A stretch of DNA of 17,144 bases, from contig JBGQGY010000083.1 in the NCBI GenBank assembly GCA_041497675.1, forward strand, positions 1 to 17,144, read 5' to 3'. A program made the translations under genes and the position numbers. Shown one piece after another: positions 1 through 13,618 of the stretch (positions are counted from its first letter, which is position 1; each line of letters starts with the position of its first letter). Source of the DNA: a bacterium (GTDB taxonomy: Bacteria; Sysuimicrobiota; Sysuimicrobiia; Sysuimicrobiales; Humicultoraceae). The notes beneath the pieces were generated by a model, which saw only the letters and a list, made by a program, of their open reading frames with translations, was not told the origin of the DNA and did no database searches.

Positions 1-1036
1 CCACCGTGTCTTCCACCGTGATCCCGTTCGACGCATGGATATTCATGAAGTTGTTGTCGGACCGCCAGATCGATGCGCCCCGCACGGACATCCCCCGGGA
101 CGTATCCGCCATCAAGTGGAAGTGCACCGGGTACCGGCCCAGACACCCAAAGTCCCCCAGATCCCGGAACTCCGCGTACCCAATGCTCCCGCTGGCTCCT
201 GCCTGGTAGATCGTGTGCCCTTGCATGGTCCGCCCTGGGTACTTACTCGTCACCACCACGTTGCGGGTCAGCAAGGCCACCTCGCCCACCGTCTGGCCGC
301 TCGCGTCGTGCGCGAACTGCAGTCCCGCACTCAACGTCAGTTCCGTGGTCGTTCCCCGCCGCACGACCTGCTGGATCTGCCGCTCATCATATTGGGGGGT
401 GGTCCGGTTATTGGCCTCATTCCCCATGGCCGTCGAGGTGAGCACCACCCAGGACCCTACCGTCCAATCACTCACGTCGTCAGCCACCTGTACCACTGTC
501 GCGCCGGCCGCCGCGGGCGCCGCCAGCTTCGTCCACGTCACCCGCACCGGGGTGCCCTGGATATCCCACCGGCCGGACACCCACACGCCCGTATCGCCTT
601 CCACAAATGCCGTTCCCCCAGTGCACGTCGCCCCCGAGGCGATCACCAACCGCAACTCCGCCGTCACGGTCCCCGGGATCGGGCTCCCCGGCGTCCCCAT
701 GTCCAGCGTCCCGCCCCGATCCACAATCACGTTCCCCACATCCAACCGCGTCGCCCGGTCCCGCGCAAACGCCAGGGTCCCCTGGATTTGCAGCCGGCCA
801 ATCTCCACGTCGCTGTGGACGTCATACGCGACCTGGTGCCCGGTCCCGATGAGGACCGACTCGCCGCGCACGGGCAGCCGACTTACACTCCACACCCCGG
901 GGTCGGACCAGCGCCCACTGCGGGTCGTGGAGACTTGCGGGACTTGTGCGCGAACCTCTGGGATTTGCGGGGTGACGACCATCGATAGTGCGAGCAGGGT
1001 AGCACACGAGAAAATCAGGATGTGGCGGGCATTCAA
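1..1036 (-). CDS. Secreted G8 domain-containing protein with a CEMIP/TMEM2/fibrocystin-L-like beta-helix region; its 3' end runs off the window start
   Basis: Manual minus-strand translation from TTG at 1036 (SD-like GAAAGGGGG about 7 nt upstream) is open for 345 codons to the window edge: MNARHILIFSCATLLALSMVVTPQIPEVRAQ (signal-like), SGRWSDPGVW...V.I..GHQV.YD (G8 start), GGTLDMGT, TWTKLA, DVSDWTVGSWVVLTST, GEVALLTRNVVV, YAEFRDLG, LGRYPVHFH, SIWRSDNNFMNIHASNGITVEDTV. The + strand ORFs 35..988 and 213..1136 are its antisense shadows. Confidence 0.88.
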   Translation of the reverse strand, partial: MNARHILIFSCATLLALSMVVTPQIPEVRAQVPQVSTTRSGRWSDPGVWSVSRLPVRGESVLIGTGHQVAYDVHSDVEIGRLQIQGTLAFARDRATRLDVGNVIVDRGGTLDMGTPGSPIPGTVTAELRLVIASGATCTGGTAFVEGDTGVWVSGRWDIQGTPVRVTWTKLAAPAAAGATVVQVADDVSDWTVGSWVVLTSTAMGNEANNRTTPQYDERQIQQVVRRGTTTELTLSAGLQFAHDASGQTVGEVALLTRNVVVTSKYPGRTMQGHTIYQAGASGSIGYAEFRDLGDFGCLGRYPVHFHLMADTSRGMSVRGASIWRSDNNFMNIHASNGITVEDTV

Positions 1037-1225
1037 TGCTTGGCCCCCTTTCGACAACAGACGCACTGCAGGAGGCGCAGTACCGCCGTTGCGGGAGATT
1101 TGGAACTGCACGCGAAGGGGGGGAGTTTCCTGCTAAGCCCCTCTCCGGCCGGGCGAGAACTGCTAGCAGGGCGGTCAACCGTCCCGACATGAAGTGTGTC
1201 ACTGATCACGGGTGTTGGACAATAC

Positions 1226-4358: not shown

Positions 4359-5972
4359 CTACCGGCGCACCCCGAGCACGCGCAGCGCGGTCTCCGCGGC
4401 CTTGCGCCCCGTCTCGGCGCCGCCGTTCATGTACCCCTGATAGTCGAGGCTACAGTGCTCACCGGCGAAGAGCACGTTCCCGACGCGCATGGCTTCGGCG
4501 CCGCGGATACCCGTCCACTGGCCTGGGCGATAACACGCGTAGCTTCCCTTCGTAAACGGATAGGTCGGCCAGTGCCAGCGCGCGCCTCTCTCGCCGCGCG
4601 CGGCGCCAACGCCCGGAAACACGCGATCGGCGCCCGGCACCAAGCGGGCGGTCTGCTCGTCCACCGTCCCCTGCCCCACGAGCAGCCCCGGTCGTCCACC
4701 CGAGAACAGCGTGACCCCGCCCACCGGGCCCGGCTGTCCCCTGCTGTTATCCCAACAGAGTTGGAATCCCACGTCCGAGTATGCTGACCCGGAGTATCCC
4801 GCGGCACGCCACGGACGCTCCAGCAGCCCGAGCATCAGTTTCGCATTCGTGCCGTAGCCCAGCTCGCGGATGGCCTTCCTTTTGATGGCGGGCATCTCGA
4901 CGCCGATCTCGACCTCACGCAGCATCGTAAACGGCACGGCGAGGATCACGACATCGGCCACGACCTCGGTTGATCCGGCACCGCGTTGGTCAAATGTGAG
5001 CGCGAGCGCCCGGCCACGCGCGCGCAGCGCCGTCAGACGCTGACCGTACACGATCCGCCCGTCGAGACGCCTGGCCAGCGCGAGCGGGATCTGCTGATTG
5101 CCGCCGCGCACTTTGTACCGTTCATCGCTGTCGCCGACGATCTGAAAGCCCCCGGACAGATCGGTGCCGATGAGCGTGATGAAGTTCAGCGCGGACTGCT
5201 CGCCGGCATCGAGCCCGAACTCCGTGACGTAGGCGACTTCCAGCAATTGGCCGATCCACCCGACGGCGCCGATCCGCCGGAGGTAGTCGGCCAGCGACAA
5301 GCGGTCCAGGCCTGCGGCGCCGCCCGGGTGTTGAAAATCGATCCGCTCAGCGAGCCTGGCGGCGTCGGCGGCAATCTGCCGGGCAATCGACCGGAACGCC
5401 TGGACGACGTCGACCTCGGTATAGTGGCGGCCGCCGAAGAAATACGCGTCCTTGCGGCCCGCCTCGCCTGGGCCTTTCATGTCCATCAACTCGAGGCCGA
5501 ACTCTTTGACCAGCGCGAGCAGATCCTCGTGGTCGCTGTTGATGAACTCCCCGCCAAACTCGGTCACTAGTCCCGGTGCGATCGCGTCCCGGACGGAAAA
5601 CATCCGGCCTCCCGCGCGGGTCGTCGCCTCGTAGACGGTCGCGGTCACGCCGCCGGCCCGCAGATACTGGGCGGCCGTCAGGCCGGCGACTCCACCGCCG
5701 ACGATCACCACCCGCGCCGTAGACCGCGTCTCTGCACCCACAGCGAGAGGCCTCAACGGCCCGATCAGGGTCCGGGCGCCGGCGACCGCGGCCACAGCCG
5801 CAGAGGTCTGCAGAAACTGCCGGCGGGTCAGGCGCTCCTGGCGCAGGCCGATCAGGTCGTCGACCGGAGGCGCTCCTCGAGCGTTCGCCGCCGCGGCCAG
5901 CCCCACTGCCCGGCGGAGGGCTGCGAAAAGTGGAGTTCGAGAGCCGGTGTTGACGTGTATTGATCTACCCAT
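4359..5972 (-). CDS. Flavin monoamine oxidase / L-amino-acid oxidase family protein with a twin-arginine (Tat) motif
   Basis: LTRRQFLQ followed by a hydrophobic stretch; FAD-binding VVIVGGGVAGL..A, YEATTRAGGR, EFGGEFI; C-terminal FAGEHCS...GYMNGGAETG. The exact start is uncertain because no clear SD precedes the ATG. Confidence 0.9.
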   Translation of the reverse strand: MGRSIHVNTGSRTPLFAALRRAVGLAAAANARGAPPVDDLIGLRQERLTRRQFLQTSAAVAAVAGARTLIGPLRPLAVGAETRSTARVVIVGGGVAGLTAAQYLRAGGVTATVYEATTRAGGRMFSVRDAIAPGLVTEFGGEFINSDHEDLLALVKEFGLELMDMKGPGEAGRKDAYFFGGRHYTEVDVVQAFRSIARQIAADAARLAERIDFQHPGGAAGLDRLSLADYLRRIGAVGWIGQLLEVAYVTEFGLDAGEQSALNFITLIGTDLSGGFQIVGDSDERYKVRGGNQQIPLALARRLDGRIVYGQRLTALRARGRALALTFDQRGAGSTEVVADVVILAVPFTMLREVEIGVEMPAIKRKAIRELGYGTNAKLMLGLLERPWRAAGYSGSAYSDVGFQLCWDNSRGQPGPVGGVTLFSGGRPGLLVGQGTVDEQTARLVPGADRVFPGVGAARGERGARWHWPTYPFTKGSYACYRPGQWTGIRGAEAMRVGNVLFAGEHCSLDYQGYMNGGAETGRKAAETALRVLGVRR

Positions 5973-6097
5973 ATATGGAAGGCCCTGTTCAAGGACCTCG
6001 AGGGGTCTCCCTCCTCAATGCTCATGATGTTGCCAGAATTGCGGGCAAACCCTCTGCGCCTGCGGGTATTCCCTCACCGGCCGACGGTGGCTTCTGA

Positions 6098-6127
6098 TTG
6101 ACCGGACTTTTGGGCAAATGAAACAAT
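6098..6127 (+). promoter_or_regulatory. Possible sigma70-type promoter for the halogenase operon
   Basis: TTGACC at 6098-6103, an 18-nt spacer ending in TGA (extended -10-like), then AACAAT at 6122-6127, about 45 nt upstream of the ATG at 6172. The -10 match is imperfect. Confidence 0.3.
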
Positions 6128-6171
6128 CGAGGGACCCGAACAGGGTTCGAGCCCTACGGAGGAGATCTGGG

Positions 6172-7545
6172 ATGCGAACGGACGTCCTCATCGTCGGCGG
6201 CGGGCCGGCAGGTGCGACAGGTGCGATGTTTCTCGCCGCCGAGGGTATTCGGCCGATTATCGTCGAGCGCGAACCATTCCCGCGCTACCACATTGGCGAG
6301 TCGATGACCGGCGAATGCGGGGCCGTCCTTCGGGATTTGGGTCTCGAACAGAGAATGCTCGCCGACGAGCACCCGGTGAAGCAGGGAGTCAAGGTCTACA
6401 GCCCTAACGGGAAAACCGAGTGGTTCGTCCCCGTGATGGGACGGGACGCGAATTGGACGCTGTTCGACCAGTTCACCTGGCAGGTGCGGCGCAGCAATTT
6501 CGACCAGATGCTGCTGGACGAGGCGGTCGCGCGCGGGGCGACTATTCTGCGCGGCACGGCCCTCAAACCCCTGCTGCGTGACGATGGCTCGGTGCGCGGC
6601 GCGCAGATCCGCATGGCCGACGGCGGCACCGTAGACGTGGAGTCGGAGATGTTGCTGGACTGCTCGGGTCAGGCCACGTTCCTGGCCAACGCCGGTGTGA
6701 CGGGGCCCAAATATCTCGGCAGCTACGACAAACAGATCGCCATCTTCTCGCAGGTCACCGGAGCCGCCCGCGACGATGGCACGACCCGCGACGCCCACAA
6801 GGATAACACCCTGATCTTCTATGAGAAGAAGTACCATTGGGCGTGGCTCATCCCACTCGACGGGGACGTCGTGAGCGTCGGCGTCGTGGTGCCGGCCGCC
6901 TACTTCCTGGAAAAGAGGGAGACGAAAAAGACCTTCCTCGTGCGAGAACTACACGAGATGAATGCTGACCTGAAGCGACGTTTGCCTGAGATCACCCTGA
7001 TCGAAGACGTTCACGTGATACCGAACTACTCGTTCCAGGTGAGGCAGTTCTGCGGCAAGGGGTTCATGTGTATCGGGGACGCGCACCGGTTCCTCGACCC
7101 GATCTTCTCCTTCGGCCTGTACGTCTCGATGAAAGAGGCGCAGTTTGCTGCCCCGCTCATCAAAGCGTATCTGGCCGGGGCGCAGCGTGATGATGACAAT
7201 CCCTTCGCGTCGCACCAGTTGCGCTGCGAGAAAGGGATCGACGTCTTGGAGGACACCATCGACCTGTTCTGGGAGCAGCCTTTTGCATTCGCGGCGTTCG
7301 TACACGCCCGTTACCGCGAGTACTTTACCGACATCCTGGCCGGGCGCGTCTACGAGCGGCAGCCTTCGCCGGCCGTGACGGCCGTTCGCAAGATGCTCAA
7401 GCGCGAGGAAGAACGCAACCGCTCCTACCAGGCGCAGGATCTCTACTCCATGCCCATCGGGTCGCGCTTCCATCCCGAGCGGAGCGCGCTCTGGGAGCCG
7501 AACTCGACGGTCGAGACCACGGAAGCCTGGATGGGACCACGGTGA
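6172..7545 (+). CDS. Flavin-dependent halogenase-like FAD oxidoreductase (PltA/CndH-type, about 457 aa)
   Basis: ATG at 6172 after GGAGGAG. Motifs DVLIVGGGPAG, FPRYHIGES, Lys70 in HPVKQG at the position expected for the catalytic Lys, QVRRSNFD.MLL..A, WAWLIP (the WxWxIP halogenase motif, 6838-6855), SVGVV and GDAHRFLDPIFSFG (FxDPxxSxG). Halogenase activity itself is inferred. Confidence 0.8.
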   Translation: MRTDVLIVGGGPAGATGAMFLAAEGIRPIIVEREPFPRYHIGESMTGECGAVLRDLGLEQRMLADEHPVKQGVKVYSPNGKTEWFVPVMGRDANWTLFDQFTWQVRRSNFDQMLLDEAVARGATILRGTALKPLLRDDGSVRGAQIRMADGGTVDVESEMLLDCSGQATFLANAGVTGPKYLGSYDKQIAIFSQVTGAARDDGTTRDAHKDNTLIFYEKKYHWAWLIPLDGDVVSVGVVVPAAYFLEKRETKKTFLVRELHEMNADLKRRLPEITLIEDVHVIPNYSFQVRQFCGKGFMCIGDAHRFLDPIFSFGLYVSMKEAQFAAPLIKAYLAGAQRDDDNPFASHQLRCEKGIDVLEDTIDLFWEQPFAFAAFVHARYREYFTDILAGRVYERQPSPAVTAVRKMLKREEERNRSYQAQDLYSMPIGSRFHPERSALWEPNSTVETTEAWMGPR

Positions 7546-8567
7546 GCAGACTGGCTCTTTGGGTAAAGTGGGCCACCGGTGCGGCGGTCGTCGCCATGGC
7601 GCTGTTGGCGGCGGCGGCGGCGCCTCCCCCACAGGCACTGCGGGTCGGCGGTCTCCCTGTCACGTGCAACCTCACGCTTCCGGTCGCCTGTCATGCGATC
7701 GCACACGCGTCCAGAACCGGCCAGTTGGTGGTCGGCGAGCTGGCGGAGTATCAGAAATTCACCGGCTGGCCCGAACTCAAGGAAGCGTTCATGGCCGGGA
7801 AAGTCAAGGCGGCCTACTTCCTGGCGCCCCTCGCTATGGACCTCGCCGATAGGGGAATCCCAGTAAAGATCGTGGCGCTGGGTCATCGCTCCGGCGCCGT
7901 GATCATGGTCAAGACCGATTCGCCAGTCAAGAACATGAAGGATCTCAAGGGCAAACGGATCGCCATTCCGAGCCGGTTCGCGGTCGACCACCTGTTTGTG
8001 CGCCGCATGCTGAAGCAAAGCGGCATGACACCCGCGGACGTGCAGTTCGTGGAGATGAACCCGCCGGATATGCCGGCCGCGCTCTACGCGGGGGCGGTCA
8101 CCGCGTACGCAACCGGCGAGCCGTTCGGCGCGGTCGCGGAACTCGCAGGCTATGGGCGCCCGCTCTACCTGACCCGAAACGAGTGGCCAGACTACATCTG
8201 TTGCGTCCTGACGGTCCGTCAGGAGTTGATCGAGACGAATCGGCCTCTCGTCCAGCAACTCGTAAACTACGTGATATCCGCCGGCGCGTGGCTCCAGGCG
8301 TCGCCAAACAACCGCCTCGTCGCCGCGGATCTGGCGGCCGACAGGCGCTACTTCAACCAGAAGGCCGAAGTGCTGCGACTCGTCATGACCCGCCCGCCGG
8401 ACCGGGTCACCTATGGTGATCTCAAGGTCGCCCGATCCGAGCTCGATGTGCTGATGCGGCTTGCCCTGGAAGCCGGCATCATTGCGCACCCAGTCCCCTA
8501 CGAGAAATACGTGGACGAGAGCTTCATCAAGAACTACAAACCGGTCGAAATCCGGATCGACCGATGA
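7542..8567 (+). CDS. ABC transporter substrate-binding protein 1, NitT/TauT (SsuA/NMT1/NrtA-like) family
   Basis: GTG start overlaps the halogenase stop (GTGA). Ala-rich Sec-type signal without a lipobox. Motifs LRVGGLPVTCNLTLPVAC, WPELKEA...G, DLKGKRIAIP, PPDMPAAL..G, GEPF and WPDYICCVL. Confidence 0.9.
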   Translation: MSRLALWVKWATGAAVVAMALLAAAAAPPPQALRVGGLPVTCNLTLPVACHAIAHASRTGQLVVGELAEYQKFTGWPELKEAFMAGKVKAAYFLAPLAMDLADRGIPVKIVALGHRSGAVIMVKTDSPVKNMKDLKGKRIAIPSRFAVDHLFVRRMLKQSGMTPADVQFVEMNPPDMPAALYAGAVTAYATGEPFGAVAELAGYGRPLYLTRNEWPDYICCVLTVRQELIETNRPLVQQLVNYVISAGAWLQASPNNRLVAADLAADRRYFNQKAEVLRLVMTRPPDRVTYGDLKVARSELDVLMRLALEAGIIAHPVPYEKYVDESFIKNYKPVEIRIDR

Positions 8568-8595
8568 AAGTGTGTTCGGTGGGGGACGAGGCCCG

Positions 8596-9219
8596 ATGGA
8601 TAGCCTGATGCGCTGGCTCGCAGCCATAGCCATCGCCGCGGTGATCGCGCCCGGCGGGATCGGGTGGCTGGCCGGCAAACCAGCGTACGCGTTCCACGGG
8701 ATCACCACCGAAGCGCCGCAGGCCGCCGAGTTCGCGTTGACCGCGCAGGACGGCGCCCGCGTCCGCCTCAGCGACTTTCGGGGGAAGATGGTGCTGCTCT
8801 ACTTTGGGTACACAAACTGCCCGGGCATCTGTCCGACGACGCTCGCCGAGATCAACCGGGCCCTCACGTCCCTGGGCCGCTCGGCGGCACGGGTTCAAGT
8901 GATGATGGTCACCGTTGACCCGGAACGCGATACGCCCGCGCGACTTGCCACGTACATGCCGCACTTCAACCCGGCGTTCCTCGGGCTGACCGGGACGCCG
9001 CGGGAGGTCGCCGCCGTCGCTGCCAAGTACGGCATCTACTTTAAGAAGACTGAAGAAACCGGCAGGGGTGACTACCTCGTTGATCACACGAGTATGGTGA
9101 TTGTCATAGACTCGGCCGGGCGCGTCCGCCTCCTCTTCCCGTTCGGCACGACGGTCGAGGATATGACATCCGACCTGGTCCACCTGCTCGGTCCGGGGAC
9201 AGGGAGGAGCCGAGGGTGA
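8596..9219 (+). CDS. SCO1/SenC family copper chaperone
   Basis: ATG at 8596 is more plausible than the ORF-track start at 8461, which lies inside SBP1. N-terminal hydrophobic anchor; LSDFRGK..LLYFGYTNCPGICP (CxxxC), VTVDPERDTP, YLVDHT (conserved His ligand). Confidence 0.93.
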   Translation: MDSLMRWLAAIAIAAVIAPGGIGWLAGKPAYAFHGITTEAPQAAEFALTAQDGARVRLSDFRGKMVLLYFGYTNCPGICPTTLAEINRALTSLGRSAARVQVMMVTVDPERDTPARLATYMPHFNPAFLGLTGTPREVAAVAAKYGIYFKKTEETGRGDYLVDHTSMVIVIDSAGRVRLLFPFGTTVEDMTSDLVHLLGPGTGRSRG

Positions 9220-9659
9220 GCAAGAATCTGGCGATGTGGGTCGTGGGTGCTATCACGGCCGCCGCGCTGCTGACGACCGGCGTGGCTGCGAGTCCCAAGA
9301 TCACAGTACAGGAGGTCTGGGCGAGACCGCTGCCGCCAGTAGTAGAGTCGGCGGAACTGTACATGGTCATCCGCAACGACGGCACAGATGCGGATCGGCT
9401 GGTCGGTGCATCGTCGCCGGCGTGCGGCATGATGGTGCTCTACGAACGTTACCGCACGCCCAAGGGCACGATGAGTATGCGTGAGACAGGTCCCATCTCG
9501 ATTCCGGCGGGCCAGCGAGTTGAATTGAAGGTGAATGGGCATCATGTTATGTGTATGGAGCGTAAACGGGAGTTCAAGGCGGGCGTTTCGTTCCCCCTGA
9601 CGCTGAAGTTCGAGAAATCCGGAGACGTCAAGGTCCAGCTCACGGTCCAGAATCGATAG
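9216..9659 (+). CDS. PCuAC (DR1885-like) periplasmic copper chaperone with an atypical first ligand
   Basis: GTG start overlaps the SCO stop. Signal peptide; VWAR, YMVIRNDG..DRLVGASSP, MSMR, ISIPAG..VEL...GHHVM, FPLTLKFEKSG. M88-x21-H110-x-M112 is intact, but the usual ELHE reads VLYE. Confidence 0.88.
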   Translation: MSKNLAMWVVGAITAAALLTTGVAASPKITVQEVWARPLPPVVESAELYMVIRNDGTDADRLVGASSPACGMMVLYERYRTPKGTMSMRETGPISIPAGQRVELKVNGHHVMCMERKREFKAGVSFPLTLKFEKSGDVKVQLTVQNR

Positions 9660-9665
9660 ACGGAA

Positions 9666-9695
9666 GCCGGCTCCCCCAAGCCGGCGAGGAGGAGG
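9666..9695 (+). promoter_or_regulatory. 7-bp GC hairpin directly followed by a very strong Shine-Dalgarno sequence for SBP2
   Basis: GCCGGCT-CCCCCA-AGCCGGC (9666-9685), then GAGGAGGAGG (9686-9695) and ATG at 9699. There is no U-tract, so it is not a terminator. Confidence 0.45.
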
Positions 9696-9698
9696 ACC

Positions 9699-10748
9699 AT
9701 GGACTCAGGGATTCACCGCATCGGACGCGCGTGGGTGATGTGGGCGGTGAGCGTCGCGGCGGTGGTTGCGGGTCTGCTCTTGGTCGGAGCAGCGGCAGCC
9801 GCGCCGTCGACCGAACCGCTAAAGGTCGGCGGGCTGCCCGTCACCTGTAACCTCACGCTCCCGGTCGCCTGTCATGCCCTCGCGAACGCTACCAAAGCGG
9901 GACAGTCCATCGTCGGATCCGCCGCGGAGTACCTTAGGTTCACCGGCTGGCCGGAACTGAAGGAGTCATTGATCACGGGACGAGTGAAGGTCGCCTACTT
10001 CCTGGCCCCTCTGGCGATGGAACTCGCCGAAAACAACATCCCGGTGAAGGTCGTGGCGCTCGGCCACCGTTCCGGCGCCGTCATCATGGTCAAGACCGAC
10101 TCGCCGATCAAGGGCATGAAAGACCTCAAAGGCATGCGGATCGCCATTCCCAGCCGGTTCGCCGTCGACCATCTCTTCGTCCGGCGGATGCTTAAGAAGA
10201 ACGGCATGACGGCAGCGGATGTGCAGTTCGTGGAGATGAACCCACCGGACATGCCGGCTGCCCTGTATGCGGGGGCGGTGGCGGCGTTTGCGACCGGCGA
10301 ACCGTTCGGCGCGGTGGCGGAGATGGCCGGATACGCCCGGCCCCTCTACATGACCCGGAACGAGTGGCCCAACTACATCTGCTGCGTCTTGACGGTGCGG
10401 CAAGAGCTCATTGACGAGGATCGGGCCCAGGTCCAGCAGCTCGTGAACTATGTGATGTCGGCAGGAATATGGCTGCAGGCGTCACAGAGCAACCGCAACC
10501 TGGGCGCCGAGGTGGCGGCTGGCCCACGCTACTTCAACCAGAAACCCGAAGTCCTCAGGTTCGTCATGAATAATCCGCCCGACAGGGTGACGTACGGCGA
10601 CCTGCGGGTCGTCCGAGCCGAGTTCGACGAGCTGATGCTGCTCGCCCGCGAGGCCGGCATCATCTCGCGCCGTGTCCCGTACGAGAAGTACGTAGACGAA
10701 AGCTTCGTCCGCAACTTCAAACGGGTGGTGATCAAGATTGACAGGTAA
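9699..10748 (+). CDS. ABC transporter substrate-binding protein 2, NitT/TauT family; paralog of SBP1
   Basis: Strong SD, signal peptide and the same motifs as SBP1 (LKVGGLPVTCNLTLPVAC, WPNYICCVL). By hand count, about 238 of 309 mature residues (~77%) are identical to SBP1 with no gaps. Confidence 0.92.
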   Translation: MDSGIHRIGRAWVMWAVSVAAVVAGLLLVGAAAAAPSTEPLKVGGLPVTCNLTLPVACHALANATKAGQSIVGSAAEYLRFTGWPELKESLITGRVKVAYFLAPLAMELAENNIPVKVVALGHRSGAVIMVKTDSPIKGMKDLKGMRIAIPSRFAVDHLFVRRMLKKNGMTAADVQFVEMNPPDMPAALYAGAVAAFATGEPFGAVAEMAGYARPLYMTRNEWPNYICCVLTVRQELIDEDRAQVQQLVNYVMSAGIWLQASQSNRNLGAEVAAGPRYFNQKPEVLRFVMNNPPDRVTYGDLRVVRAEFDELMLLAREAGIISRRVPYEKYVDESFVRNFKRVVIKIDR

Positions 10749-11496
10749 GTGGGGGATTCTGGCCCCTGCCGGCCTGATCGCGCTGCTGGTCGCAGCCTGG
10801 TGGGGTATGGTGGCGGCCAGCGGCAGCCCGATCATCCCCACACCGTGGCAGGTGACCCTGGGGCTCGTGGAACTGGCCCGCCAGGGGGTGCTCCTCCAGC
10901 ACGTCACGGCCTCGCTCTACCGCGTGGGTGTGGGCTACCTTTTGGCCGTCGCGCTCGCCGTTCCCCTGGGCCTCACGATGGGACGGGTCAGCGGCGTCTT
11001 CGCAGCCGTCAACCCCGTGATCCAACTGCTGCGGCCGATCTCGCCCATCGCCTGGATCCCCCTGGCCATCCTCTGGTTTGGCGTGGGAGACCTGTCACCG
11101 ATCTTCTTGATCTTCCTTGCCTCGTTCTTTCCCATGGTGGTGTACTCGGCCGCCGGCGTCCACACTATCGAACGGCAGTACATGCGGGCCTCCCAAAACT
11201 TCGGAGTCTCGGGACTCAAGCTCCTCCGCCTCGTCATCCTGCCCGGCGCGCTCCCGCAGATCATCGTGGGGATGCGCATCAGCATCGGGGTGGCCTGGCT
11301 GGTGGTCGTGGCCGCCGAGATGATCGCGCTGTCGGCTGGCCTGGGGTTTCTGATCATGGATTCCCGGAACGCCGGGAACCGCTATGACCTCGTGGTGGCC
11401 GGGATGGTCCTGATCGGCGTGATCGGGCTCCTGCTCGATAGCGTCATGCGGCGTCTCGAACGGCTCAAAGCGGTGCAGTGGCGCTATGCCCGATAG
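10738..11496 (+). CDS. ABC transporter permease, NitT/TauT (SsuC/TauC-like)
   Basis: Multiple TM segments; IIPTPWQV, LRPISPIAWIPLAILWFG, VILPGALPQIIVGMR, AWLVVVAAEM, GLGFLIMDSR. The TTG start overlaps the SBP2 end by 11 nt. Confidence 0.93.
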   Translation: MTGKWGILAPAGLIALLVAAWWGMVAASGSPIIPTPWQVTLGLVELARQGVLLQHVTASLYRVGVGYLLAVALAVPLGLTMGRVSGVFAAVNPVIQLLRPISPIAWIPLAILWFGVGDLSPIFLIFLASFFPMVVYSAAGVHTIERQYMRASQNFGVSGLKLLRLVILPGALPQIIVGMRISIGVAWLVVVAAEMIALSAGLGFLIMDSRNAGNRYDLVVAGMVLIGVIGLLLDSVMRRLERLKAVQWRYAR

Positions 11497-12250
11497 GATC
11501 GCCGTCCGTGGCCTCTCGAAGGGCTTTCCAACCCGGCAGGGGCCGCTGGCCGTGCTGGAAGGGATCGACTTCGCCGTCGCCGATGGCGAGTTCGTGGCCA
11601 TCGTGGGCCCCAGCGGTTGCGGCAAGACGACCCTGCTGAACATGATCGCCGGGTTCGAGCGCCCGGACCGCGGAGAGGTCACCGTGGACGGCTCGCCGGT
11701 ACGCGGGCCAAGTCCCAAGGGCATCGTGATCTCCCAACAGGGGTCGGTCTTTCCCTGGCTCACAGTGCGCGGCAACCTGACATTCGGACTCGATGGCGCC
11801 CCTGCGGCGGAACGCCGCCGCATTGCCGATCACTACATCGCGCTAGTCGGTCTGGAAGGTTTCGAGGGCGCCTACCCCTTCGAACTCTCTGGCGGGATGC
11901 TCAAGCGCGTGGAGGTGGCCCGCGCCCTCGCGGTCCGGCCGGAGATCCTCTACATGGACGAACCGTTTGCGGCGCTCGATGCGCTCACCCGGTTTCGGAT
12001 GCGGATCGAGCTTCTTCGAATCCTCTCGCGCGAGCGTCACACCAGTCTGCTGGTGACGCATGATGTGGAAGAGGCTATTCAGCTGGCAGACCGCATCCTG
12101 ATCCTCACGGCACGCCCCGCGACGATCAGCTCGGTCGTCAGCGTCTCAGTGCCCCACCCTCGCAAGCTGTCGAGTCCGGAAGTCGTGGACCTCAAGGAAC
12201 ACATCCTGCGCGAACTGGGAGTAGAGGCGCTGTCCTCAAACGCTCTCTAA
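11486..12250 (+). CDS. ABC transporter ATP-binding protein, NitT/TauT (SsuB/TauB-like)
   Basis: Walker A GPSGCGKTT, signature LSGGM, Walker B/D-loop ILYMDEPFAALD, H-loop LVTHDVEEAI. Overlaps the permease end by 11 nt. Confidence 0.95.
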   Translation: MPDRIAVRGLSKGFPTRQGPLAVLEGIDFAVADGEFVAIVGPSGCGKTTLLNMIAGFERPDRGEVTVDGSPVRGPSPKGIVISQQGSVFPWLTVRGNLTFGLDGAPAAERRRIADHYIALVGLEGFEGAYPFELSGGMLKRVEVARALAVRPEILYMDEPFAALDALTRFRMRIELLRILSRERHTSLLVTHDVEEAIQLADRILILTARPATISSVVSVSVPHPRKLSSPEVVDLKEHILRELGVEALSSNAL

Positions 12251-12303
12251 CCACGCACGACTCTCGAAGTTGTGGTCAGACCTGCCAGCCATAAGGGAAT
12301 TCC

Positions 12304-12328
12304 ATAGTTGGCAACAATAGTTGGCAAC
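12304..12328. repeat. Perfect tandem 12-bp direct repeat ATAGTTGGCAAC, each unit containing the palindrome GTTG-G-CAAC; putative operator
   Basis: Copies at 12304-12315 and 12317-12328, separated by 1 nt, about 45 nt upstream of the likely namZ-like start. Confidence 0.6.
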
Positions 12329-12373
12329 CGATTGAGAGAGGCGTCTGAGATCATCGTGAAGAAGAAAGAATGC

Positions 12374-13618
12374 ATGAAGCCTGCGGTATGGCGCCCGACG
12401 ACCGCGCTCGGCTTCGTCCTGCTTCTCGCCGCCCTCGGCGCGACGGCCCCAGCCCCCTCACCCGCGGTCGCGCAGCCGCCGGCGGTTCGCCCGGGCGTCG
12501 ACGTGCTGGTTGCCGATCCGGCGATCCTGCGGGGCAAACGCGTGGGGTTGGTGACCCATCAGGCCGGCATTGCCGCCGACGGCCGGTCGACCGCGGTGGT
12601 GCTGGCGGGCACACCAGGGATTCGTCTGACCGCCCTCTTTGCGCCCGAACATGGGATCGACGGCACGTACGACGCCGGCGAGCCGGTGCCGAACAACATC
12701 GTCAGCCGCACCCCGGTCTTCAGTCTTTTTGGCGGAACGTTTCAGCCGACGAGACAGATGATGGATCGGGTCGATGTGTTCGTGGTCGACCTGCAAGACG
12801 TGGGGGTGCGGCCGTTTACCTACGTGTCGACCATGGCCCTGGTCATGACCGCGGCCCGCCAGGCGGGCAAACCGGTGGTCGTGCTCGACCGCCCCAATCC
12901 GCAGGGCGGCCAGATCGTTGACGGTCCCGTGCTCGAGCCGGAGTTTCGATCATTTATCGGTCCCTATCCCATTCCGTACGTACACGGCATGACCATCGGA
13001 GAACTCGCGCTCCTGTTCAACCGCGCGTTCGGGATCGGCGCCGATCTGACCGTGATCAAGATGCAGGGGTGGACGCGCCGGATGGTCTGGACCGACACCG
13101 GGCTGCCGTGGGTGAATCCCTCGCCTGGTATCACCGGCCCCGAAGCCGTGTTCCACTACGCGGCCACGGGCCCTGTCGACGGCACGAACGTCTGGAACGC
13201 CGTGGCCACCGATTCGCGGTTCCAGGCCTTGCTTGCCCCATGGATCGATGGACCGATCCTCTCGGACGCTCTCAACCAACAGAAGCTGCCTGGCGTGACT
13301 TTCACGCCTTCCGCCATCCCCCATCCCCGTACCGGGGAGGTCTGGCGAGGCGTCCGCCTGCACATTACCGATCCCTCAACGTTTAGACCCTCTACAACTA
13401 TCGTGACCGTCCTGTCAGAAATCCACCGTCTCTATGGAAAACAGATGGCGTTCACCCAACCGCGGCGTGGCCCCTACCTGTTCGACCTAGTCTGGGGAAC
13501 CAAGGATCTGCGTATCGCCATCGCCCGCGGCGACCGACCGGCTGACATCGTGTCCCGGTGGCAGCCCGCGCTCGGCCGCTTCCAGAAGCTCCGGGAGGCC
13601 TCTCTCCTGTACGAGTAA
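12374..13618 (+). CDS. namZ: DUF1343 family exo-beta-N-acetylmuramidase (NamZ/YbbC-like), secreted
   Basis: Likely ATG at 12374, followed by a signal peptide. Motifs GKRVGLVTHQ, ALFAPEHG, DLQDVGVR.FTY.STM, VLDRPNP, VHGMTIGELA, GLPWVNPSP, and C-terminal F...R...LLY. Confidence 0.88.
   Translation: MKPAVWRPTTALGFVLLLAALGATAPAPSPAVAQPPAVRPGVDVLVADPAILRGKRVGLVTHQAGIAADGRSTAVVLAGTPGIRLTALFAPEHGIDGTYDAGEPVPNNIVSRTPVFSLFGGTFQPTRQMMDRVDVFVVDLQDVGVRPFTYVSTMALVMTAARQAGKPVVVLDRPNPQGGQIVDGPVLEPEFRSFIGPYPIPYVHGMTIGELALLFNRAFGIGADLTVIKMQGWTRRMVWTDTGLPWVNPSPGITGPEAVFHYAATGPVDGTNVWNAVATDSRFQALLAPWIDGPILSDALNQQKLPGVTFTPSAIPHPRTGEVWRGVRLHITDPSTFRPSTTIVTVLSEIHRLYGKQMAFTQPRRGPYLFDLVWGTKDLRIAIARGDRPADIVSRWQPALGRFQKLREASLLYE

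Follow-up and report, generated by a model that had tools for sequence, protein, structure and literature searches.

A putative NitT/TauT-type importer module with copper chaperones and ties to flavin-dependent halogenases

The closest described relatives of the transport system considered here are the ATP-binding cassette (ABC) importers SsuABC, TauABC, NrtABCD and CmpABCD. They share with it the fold of the substrate-binding protein (SBP) and the families of the permease and ATPase, and one of their binding proteins, CmpA, binds its anion by means of a metal; a ligand-bound CmpA structure is among the structural matches of SBP1. The system lies in a 17,144-nucleotide stretch of bacterial DNA (the window; contig JBGQGY010000083.1 of GenBank assembly GCA_041497675.1, family Humicultoraceae), where genes for a flavin-dependent halogenase, SBP1, the copper chaperones SCO and PCuAC, SBP2, a permease and an ATPase follow one another. 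An NMT1-like SBP, a BPD_transp_1 permease and an ABC ATPase in one operon place it within the broad NitT/TauT superfamily. At the level of named systems, no transporter subunit of the window reaches a curated NCBIfam cut-off (scores against cut-offs are 126.6/163.5 for SsuA, 139.1/209 for NtrB, 215.7/291.8 for NtrCD and 164.8/342 for TauC). We know of no Ssu, Tau, Nrt or Cmp system with a cleft of three cysteines and a histidine, or with selenocysteine in it, with dedicated copper chaperones or with halogenase fusions.

The best structural match, including a cleft with a histidine and a Cys-Cys pair, is to the Staphylococcus aureus protein 3UN6, the clade B carbon monoxide dehydrogenase (CODH) SBPs and SaoX. 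Zinc-bound 3UN6 is the closest fold to SBP1 (TM 0.90), and Cys42, His115, Cys220 and Cys221 of SBP1 align with His, His, Cys and Cys of 3UN6. The first of these, a His in 3UN6 and Cys42 in the window, is the position at which relatives probably carry selenocysteine. PMC13592312 describes 3UN6-like clade B CODH SBPs as having a modelled metal with two Cys and one or two His as its ligands, cargo unknown, and section 2.5 of that source groups 3UN6-like SBPs with small-anion binders. SaoX is described as having four converging Cys and an occasional selenocysteine (bioRxiv 2022.07.06.499078). The window proteins score below the cut-offs of the SAO system (SaoX 67.5/300, SaoP 172.8/295, SaoA 202.2/360), and the window holds no further gene of the nine that make up the SAO context. 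Partners differ as well: the 3UN6-like relatives stand with CODH or the SAO lyase, whereas the window SBPs stand with SCO, PCuAC and halogenases.

The same two chaperones, SCO and PCuAC, act in CuA maturation in Thermus and in the sco operon of Streptomyces; for Thermus, PMC3603459 describes a division of labour between a reductase and a Cu(I) donor. The window operon differs in encoding no CuA protein, its proposed client being the binding protein of a transporter. The halogenase resembles Bmp2, PltA and Mpy16 in its lysine, WxWxIP and tunnel motifs. Genes for a proline ligase, a prolyl-carrier dehydrogenase and an acyl carrier protein (ACP) are present in the same genome, although on another contig. 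An earlier sequence-only reading of the window knew of no characterised pathway with this combination of genes, and none was found described in print: a literature search at title and abstract level returned no published description of the module or of ATPase-halogenase fusions.

Judged by comparative sequence analysis, the module is a real, conserved and undescribed variant of the NitT/TauT importer that is tied to halogenases, each of its parts belonging to a known family. We would give an even chance to the proposal that its copper-loaded SBP captures bromide or iodide and that the ATP-driven importer supplies this halide to flavin-dependent halogenases. More tentative, at somewhat below an even chance, is the fuller form of this proposal, in which the system is a primary active Br-/I- importer, SCO and PCuAC mature a Cu(I)-thiolate or Cu(I)-selenolate site on an SBP instead of an enzyme's site, and soil bacteria thereby select scarce heavy halides in preference to chloride for their halogenases, in some cases via an ATPase fusion.

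In what follows, G000 is the window's own genome, C2, C7, C23 and C97 are other contigs of G000, other G numbers are comparison genomes and L numbers are loci. The SBP was surveyed in 80 metagenome loci (of 131), which reduce to 54 de-duplicated groups; those with enough flanking sequence to be informative number 50 for SCO, 31 for PCuAC or an alternative protein of 150 amino acids (aa), and 27 for the permease. SCO directly follows the SBP gene in 45 of the 50, PCuAC or the 150-aa cupredoxin-fold protein comes next in 27 of the 31, and a permease gene is present in all 27. Going by this gene order, the conserved unit is SBP-SCO-(PCuAC and/or cupredoxin-like protein)-permease-ATPase. This unit is widespread, associates with different halogenases and is smaller than the seven-gene set that had been taken for the conserved system. 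On the SBP tree, SBP1 and SBP2 (76% identical, with the same Cys/His set) are sister paralogues, SBP2 being a lineage-specific duplication. The seven-gene order itself is complete in G006, which belongs to a different genus of the same family, so that the combination is not random; parts of it are also seen in the window's own lineage on short contigs from metagenomes (L107, L108, L110). Named SBP homologues come from Massilia, Telluria, Lysobacter, Luteimonas, Steroidobacter and a genome labelled Armatimonadota. Plasmids yielded only distant SBP matches (26-34% identity among the matches listed), and viral contigs yielded none.

The tie to halogenases is clearest in the ATPase. In L138 and L151, ATPase and halogenase occupy one reading frame. 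When the long relatives of the window ATPase (120 listed of 246 matches) are split at 60% identity to it, a halogenase domain is found in all 23 listed at or above this value, one of these fusions being itself incomplete, and in none of the 97 listed below it. The fusions are of three types (with 14, 8 and 1 members) whose halogenases are 28-34% identical between types and which sit on separate, supported branches of the ATPase tree among unfused genes. One type, P0240, matches the window ATPase at 72% and the window halogenase at 66%, and its cluster contains a second fused member from another source. These sequences argue strongly for a tie between this ATPase subfamily and halogenases. Gene neighbourhoods agree: within -6/+8 kb of the SBP, halogenase-like genes occur in eight of the 54 groups, two of them from the window's own lineage, against a rough chance expectation of 0.2-1.1 groups for which the upper densities were assumed. 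The eight groups are scattered over the SBP tree and involve at least five kinds of halogenase, including a PrnA-type enzyme (L147); in L127, an entire dehydrogenase-ligase-ACP-halogenase run precedes the SBP. A co-occurrence profile covering 94 genomes of the phylum has the SBP in three, all of them among the four genomes with a halogenase cassette of the type found on C2; in the fourth, the orthologous halogenase is cut at a contig end. The SBP profile had no match in 251 genomes of another halogenase-rich phylum, where the co-occurrence test is without power.

Other genes also recur beside the module. Genes for ASPIC/UnbV and NQR2/RnfD-like (UnbU-like) proteins, sometimes fused, flank it in seven of the 54 groups, mostly those with SBPs of the TGA type described below (L109, L112, L113, L129, L133/L134). 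ASPIC/UnbV- and UnbU-related proteins reportedly take part in enediyne pathways that proceed via an iodinated intermediate, which would fit a supply of iodide.

The predicted metal site of SBP1, formed by Cys42, His115, Cys220 and Cys221, is invariant in the homologues that cover these residues (80/80 and 121/121), which would give the cleft a Cys3-His geometry. Among the 73 loci that contain the codon aligned with Cys42 (seven of the 80 do not), it is TGA in 22, with flanking sequence conserved on both sides and a hairpin downstream. This TGA probably encodes selenocysteine. The hairpin is somewhat stronger after TGA (median -10.7 kcal/mol) than in loci without it (-8.6 kcal/mol), in a comparison of related and not independent sequences. 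Neither SBP of the window has an in-frame TGA at all, both having Cys codons, although G000 has SelA. SaoX and SaoB are listed in a selenoproteome review of 2026, and the passages found there contain no family like this SBP (PMC13188914). Five TGA-type SBPs carry an insert that contains 6-10 Met; four have no adjoining SCO, and the fifth locus is too short to tell. Together, the Cys/selenocysteine set and the Met inserts point to a soft-metal site, most likely for Cu(I). A complex prediction for SBP1 with SCO scored 0.00, which gives no verdict and counts neither way.

On the chaperone side, the C75-x3-C79 motif of SCO and its H164 are invariant in 53 aligned sequences, in keeping with the CxxxC plus His arrangement of its family. 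PCuAC keeps M86/M88, H110 and M112 and has Tyr76 where, as we take the His/Met ligand motif to run, the first His should stand. The alternative 150-aa protein has an amicyanin-like fold and an invariant Cys-x2-His, with Gln at the expected upstream His ligand position in most copies; it was not found in G000. That genome encodes cytochrome c oxidase and NosZ, the latter in a nitrous oxide reductase cluster with NosD and an ABC ATPase gene (C23:23800-29400). The permease resembles anion permeases and has no conserved Cys among 36 family alignments.

The best match of the window halogenase in the Protein Data Bank is Bmp2 (5BVA, E 7e-72), the next family reaching 1e-40. Its wider family was surveyed in 76 loci, drawn from the best 80 of 130 relatives. 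Lys70, which aligns with the Bmp2 lysine that we take to be catalytic, is kept in 75 of 76 family alignments and WxWxIP (223-228) in all 76; the N-terminal FAD-binding GxGxxG and the Fx.Px.Sx.G tunnel motif are also present. At the positions of the Bmp2 triple mutant, the window enzyme has F/V/L against Y/F/A in the 5BVA alignment, so that its degree of halogenation and halide preference need not be those of Bmp2. Bmp2 is entered in a review (PMC8407142) as a pyrrole halogenase that depends on a carrier and uses Br and I. An identity as a protein-modifying flavin monooxygenase (QhpG, LodB or GoxB) was rejected, with scores of 109/240, 87.6/400 and 61.1/400 against the respective cut-offs and no quinoprotein gene in the window.

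The operon holds no carrier pathway for this enzyme; across the family, an ACP adjoins 35 of the 76 loci. On C2, a cassette conserved in G001, G006 and G012 encodes an acyl-CoA dehydrogenase closest to prolyl-ACP dehydrogenase (E 4e-128), a ligase that, among stand-alone enzymes, best matches an L-proline-carrier ligase (E 2.5e-98; large nonribosomal peptide synthetases score higher overall), an ACP, a second halogenase of its own, two hydrolase-fold proteins and a polysaccharide flippase. The Pfam carrier-protein model finds one ACP in G000 and misses that of C2; the absence of a carrier pathway from G000, which this search first suggested, was rejected once the C2 ACP had been read. A flavin reductase gene lies on C7. 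Thus, the statement that carrier protein, cuproenzyme and flavin reductase are lacking is right for the window and wrong for the genome, which has the C2 carrier cassette, the C7 reductase, cytochrome c oxidase and NosZ. The likely substrate is pyrrolyl-ACP made in trans by the C2 cassette, and the window enzyme would halogenate this pyrrolyl carrier.

Further features of the halogenase loci stand apart from the module. The content of the C2 cassette suggests halopyrrole decoration of a surface glycan. Genes of the Na+/H+ exchanger family (cation/proton antiporters) adjoin 21 of the 76 loci, for example, L034 and L037. Seven loci, all from Chthoniobacterales (L026, L077, L088, L089, L090, L092, L097), have a second, distant NMT1-like SBP nearby, with about 22% identity where aligned, conserved Cys, His and Cys-Cys, and a C-terminal Cys-Cys tail; this family may be a parallel solution. 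Finally, L190:8897-10267 in G069, a genome without the SBP, is a halogenase of the same family with one internal TAG inside an ACP/hydrolase cluster.

If the system imports halide, SCO would keep the cleft cysteines of the SBP reduced and/or carry copper, and PCuAC would load Cu(I) into the Cys3-His site (Sec-Cys2-His in relatives), in a maturation like that of CuA by the same two chaperones. The metal would be copper, and it would stay on the SBP while the cargo, a halide, passes on. Cu(I)-thiolate and Cu(I)-selenolate centres favour Br- and I- over Cl-, and the open position of the soft metal would bind a soft anion in the order I- > Br- >> Cl-. The SBP would hand the anion to the anion-type permease, and in the cytoplasm the Bmp2-like enzyme would use it with FADH2 and O2 on the carrier-tethered pyrrole-2-carboxyl group from the C2 proline cassette. 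The argument for this cargo runs as follows. Since the transporter appears to have been recruited independently to unrelated halogenases, its cargo should be an outside need common to them, and halide is the one outside co-substrate that they share, their carrier-bound substrates being made inside the cell. An ATP-driven, high-affinity system makes most sense where the halide is scarce, which favours bromide or iodide.

Several observations weigh against halide import. The closest solved SBP, 3UN6, holds zinc and not copper; the PCuAC lacks its usual first His; and simple halide capture leaves the cupredoxin-like partner seen in other organisms without an explanation. A gene-neighbourhood survey, proposed as a check by the sequence-only reading, gave very strong synteny between SBP and copper genes and a weak link from the halogenase side, where the pump is present at one of the 76 loci and absent from 75. 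The four genomes behind the co-occurrence come from a single family and so are not independent, the SBP was not found in any of ten tested halogenase-bearing genomes of other phyla, and neither was it found in G011 or G069, which have the halogenase family. One large SBP clade with good support shows no halogenase within 10 kb at any of its long loci. The SCO and PCuAC of the operon are also the only copies found in G000, a genome with CuA enzymes. This last point lends real support to a housekeeping role, in which the chaperones supply copper to cytochrome c oxidase and nitrous oxide reductase and the halogenase is a passenger behind the same promoter; G012, with module and promoter and no halogenase in the operon, fits it too. 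Such a role is nevertheless improbable: SCO occurs in 62 of the 94 phylum genomes and this SBP in only three, G019 (92% complete) has COX2 with no SCO found, G012 carries the halogenase cassette elsewhere in its genome, and ATPase-halogenase fusions recur. The two chaperones may serve both housekeeping and module.

Of the options offered by the sequence-only reading, the best fit is a Cys-ligated, copper-loaded SBP that captures halide, and copper or a copper chelate is still in play as cargo. The worst fit is an organic substrate, because the probable one is assembled on a carrier protein within the cell and the fused halogenases of different types share only 28-34% identity. For copper import, the Cys/Sec-rich SBP would bind either Cu or its complex with a small (halo)pyrrole-type ligand that the linked enzymes produce, and distribution of the metal would fall to SCO, PCuAC and the cupredoxin-like protein. 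Every accessory gene of the module is of a copper-handling family, SBPs without SCO have Met-rich inserts, and many modules have no halogenase nearby, yet we consider this unlikely: since flavin halogenases work without copper, it leaves the three separate ATPase-halogenase fusions unexplained; conserved Cys are lacking in the permease; and copper need not be imported for SCO and PCuAC, which work outside the membrane. That the importer brings in the organic substrate of the halogenase or recaptures its halogenated product by a metal-assisted site is less likely again. Folds related to the SBP bind sulfonates, pyrroloquinoline quinone and pyrimidines in structure comparison, a transporter-enzyme fusion suits substrate channelling, and SBP1 and SBP2 could differ in ligand. 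The likely substrate, however, is made from proline on a carrier inside the cell, and the cleft residues of the SBP do not vary between loci even where the halogenases share about 30% identity and belong to different substrate classes. The least probable reading has SBP and copper partners turning another halogen species, such as iodate or hypohalite, into halide by redox catalysis at the cell surface, after which the pump imports the halide. The Sec/Cys position, the thioredoxin-fold SCO and the cupredoxin-like protein would allow electron transfer, but the module has no electron source, and the cupredoxin-like protein is missing from G000 and has Gln for the expected His in most copies.

To our knowledge, no ABC importer for halides has been described, nor has it been explained how halogenases that prefer bromide or iodide are provided with it in land bacteria. 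If halide is indeed the cargo, the module would be a halide-selective uptake system open to direct test, the SCO/PCuAC chaperones would gain a new class of clients, and the SBP relatives would include a new family of selenoproteins. Pathways to bromo- or iodo-metabolites in soil bacteria that have not been cultured could then be recognised by a genome marker, and engineered halogenation would acquire a means of steering halide choice. Were the cargo copper instead, the module would still be an undescribed copper-handling importer.

In the window, all seven reading frames proposed for the operon are open and on the plus strand (Table 1), and Pfam upholds their family labels. The junctions agree exactly with the sequence-only reading: neighbouring genes overlap by 4 nt at 7542-7545 and 9216-9219 and by 11 nt at 10738-10748 and 11486-11496, and gaps of 28 and 39 nt separate the others. 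The promoter-like match at 6098-6127, ahead of the halogenase, is the only one on the plus strand in 5800-12500 and is kept upstream of the halogenase in G006, L107 and G001. In G012, where the operon has neither halogenase nor SBP1, the same leader stands directly before SCO; the halogenase therefore seems to sit between the module's own promoter and the module, which supports a single transcript. With its tight junctions and one promoter-like site, the operon is likely to be one transcript, as had been claimed. Rfam had no match in the window and eight loci, hence no known riboswitch. The NamZ gene downstream (12308-13618) was rejected as an operon member, as it does not adjoin the operon in G006.

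Table 1. Features of the window operon and of related loci (ORF, open reading frame)
Feature	Location	Strand	Remarks
Bmp2-like flavin-dependent halogenase, 457 aa, no signal peptide	6172..7545	+	open ORF; Trp_halogenase/FAD_binding_3
SBP1, NMT1-like binding protein	7542..8567	+	open ORF; NMT1_2; Cys42 codon at 7665
SCO1/SenC copper chaperone or thiol reductase	8596..9219	+	open ORF; SCO1-SenC
PCuAC copper chaperone	9216..9659	+	open ORF; PCuAC Pfam cut-off passed
SBP2, SBP1 duplicate	9699..10748	+	open ORF; NMT1_2; Cys codon at 9846
NitT/TauT-type permease	10738..11496	+	open ORF; BPD_transp_1
ABC ATPase	11486..12250	+	open ORF; ABC_tran
Predicted promoter	6040..6127 including palindromes	+	-35 at 6098, extended -10 ending at 6127
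Two imperfect 16-bp palindromes upstream of promoter	6040-6055 and 6061-6076	+	
Proline-to-pyrrole carrier cassette	G000:C2:32100-43500 (= L024:7129-18456)		includes DUF6798-type membrane proteins
Long loci of the halogenase-free SBP clade	L140, L141, L153, L155, L175, L181, L182		contigs only

Several features lie around the promoter and module. A perfect copy of the palindrome found upstream of the operon lies in the region of a halogenase paralogue (69% identical) that follows a HisKA_3 sensor and a LuxR-type regulator on C97 (7851-11328). A shared operator of the window operon and this paralogue, served by the LuxR-type two-component pair, is suggestive only: the operator consensus was built from the same sites, permuted arms gave 0-5 genome matches against three real ones, and in G012 the palindrome boxes are present and the LuxR-type regulator was not found. 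Divergent from the operon, and with an intergenic region in common, is a gene for a flavin amine oxidoreductase with a Tat signal (4359-5972, minus strand) that is not there in G006, and a G8 + CEMIP beta-helix protein gene (2-1111, minus strand) is truncated at the contig end. In G012, genes for a NicO-type metal transporter, a TPR protein and a DUF4331 protein precede the module (L106:6188-11228).

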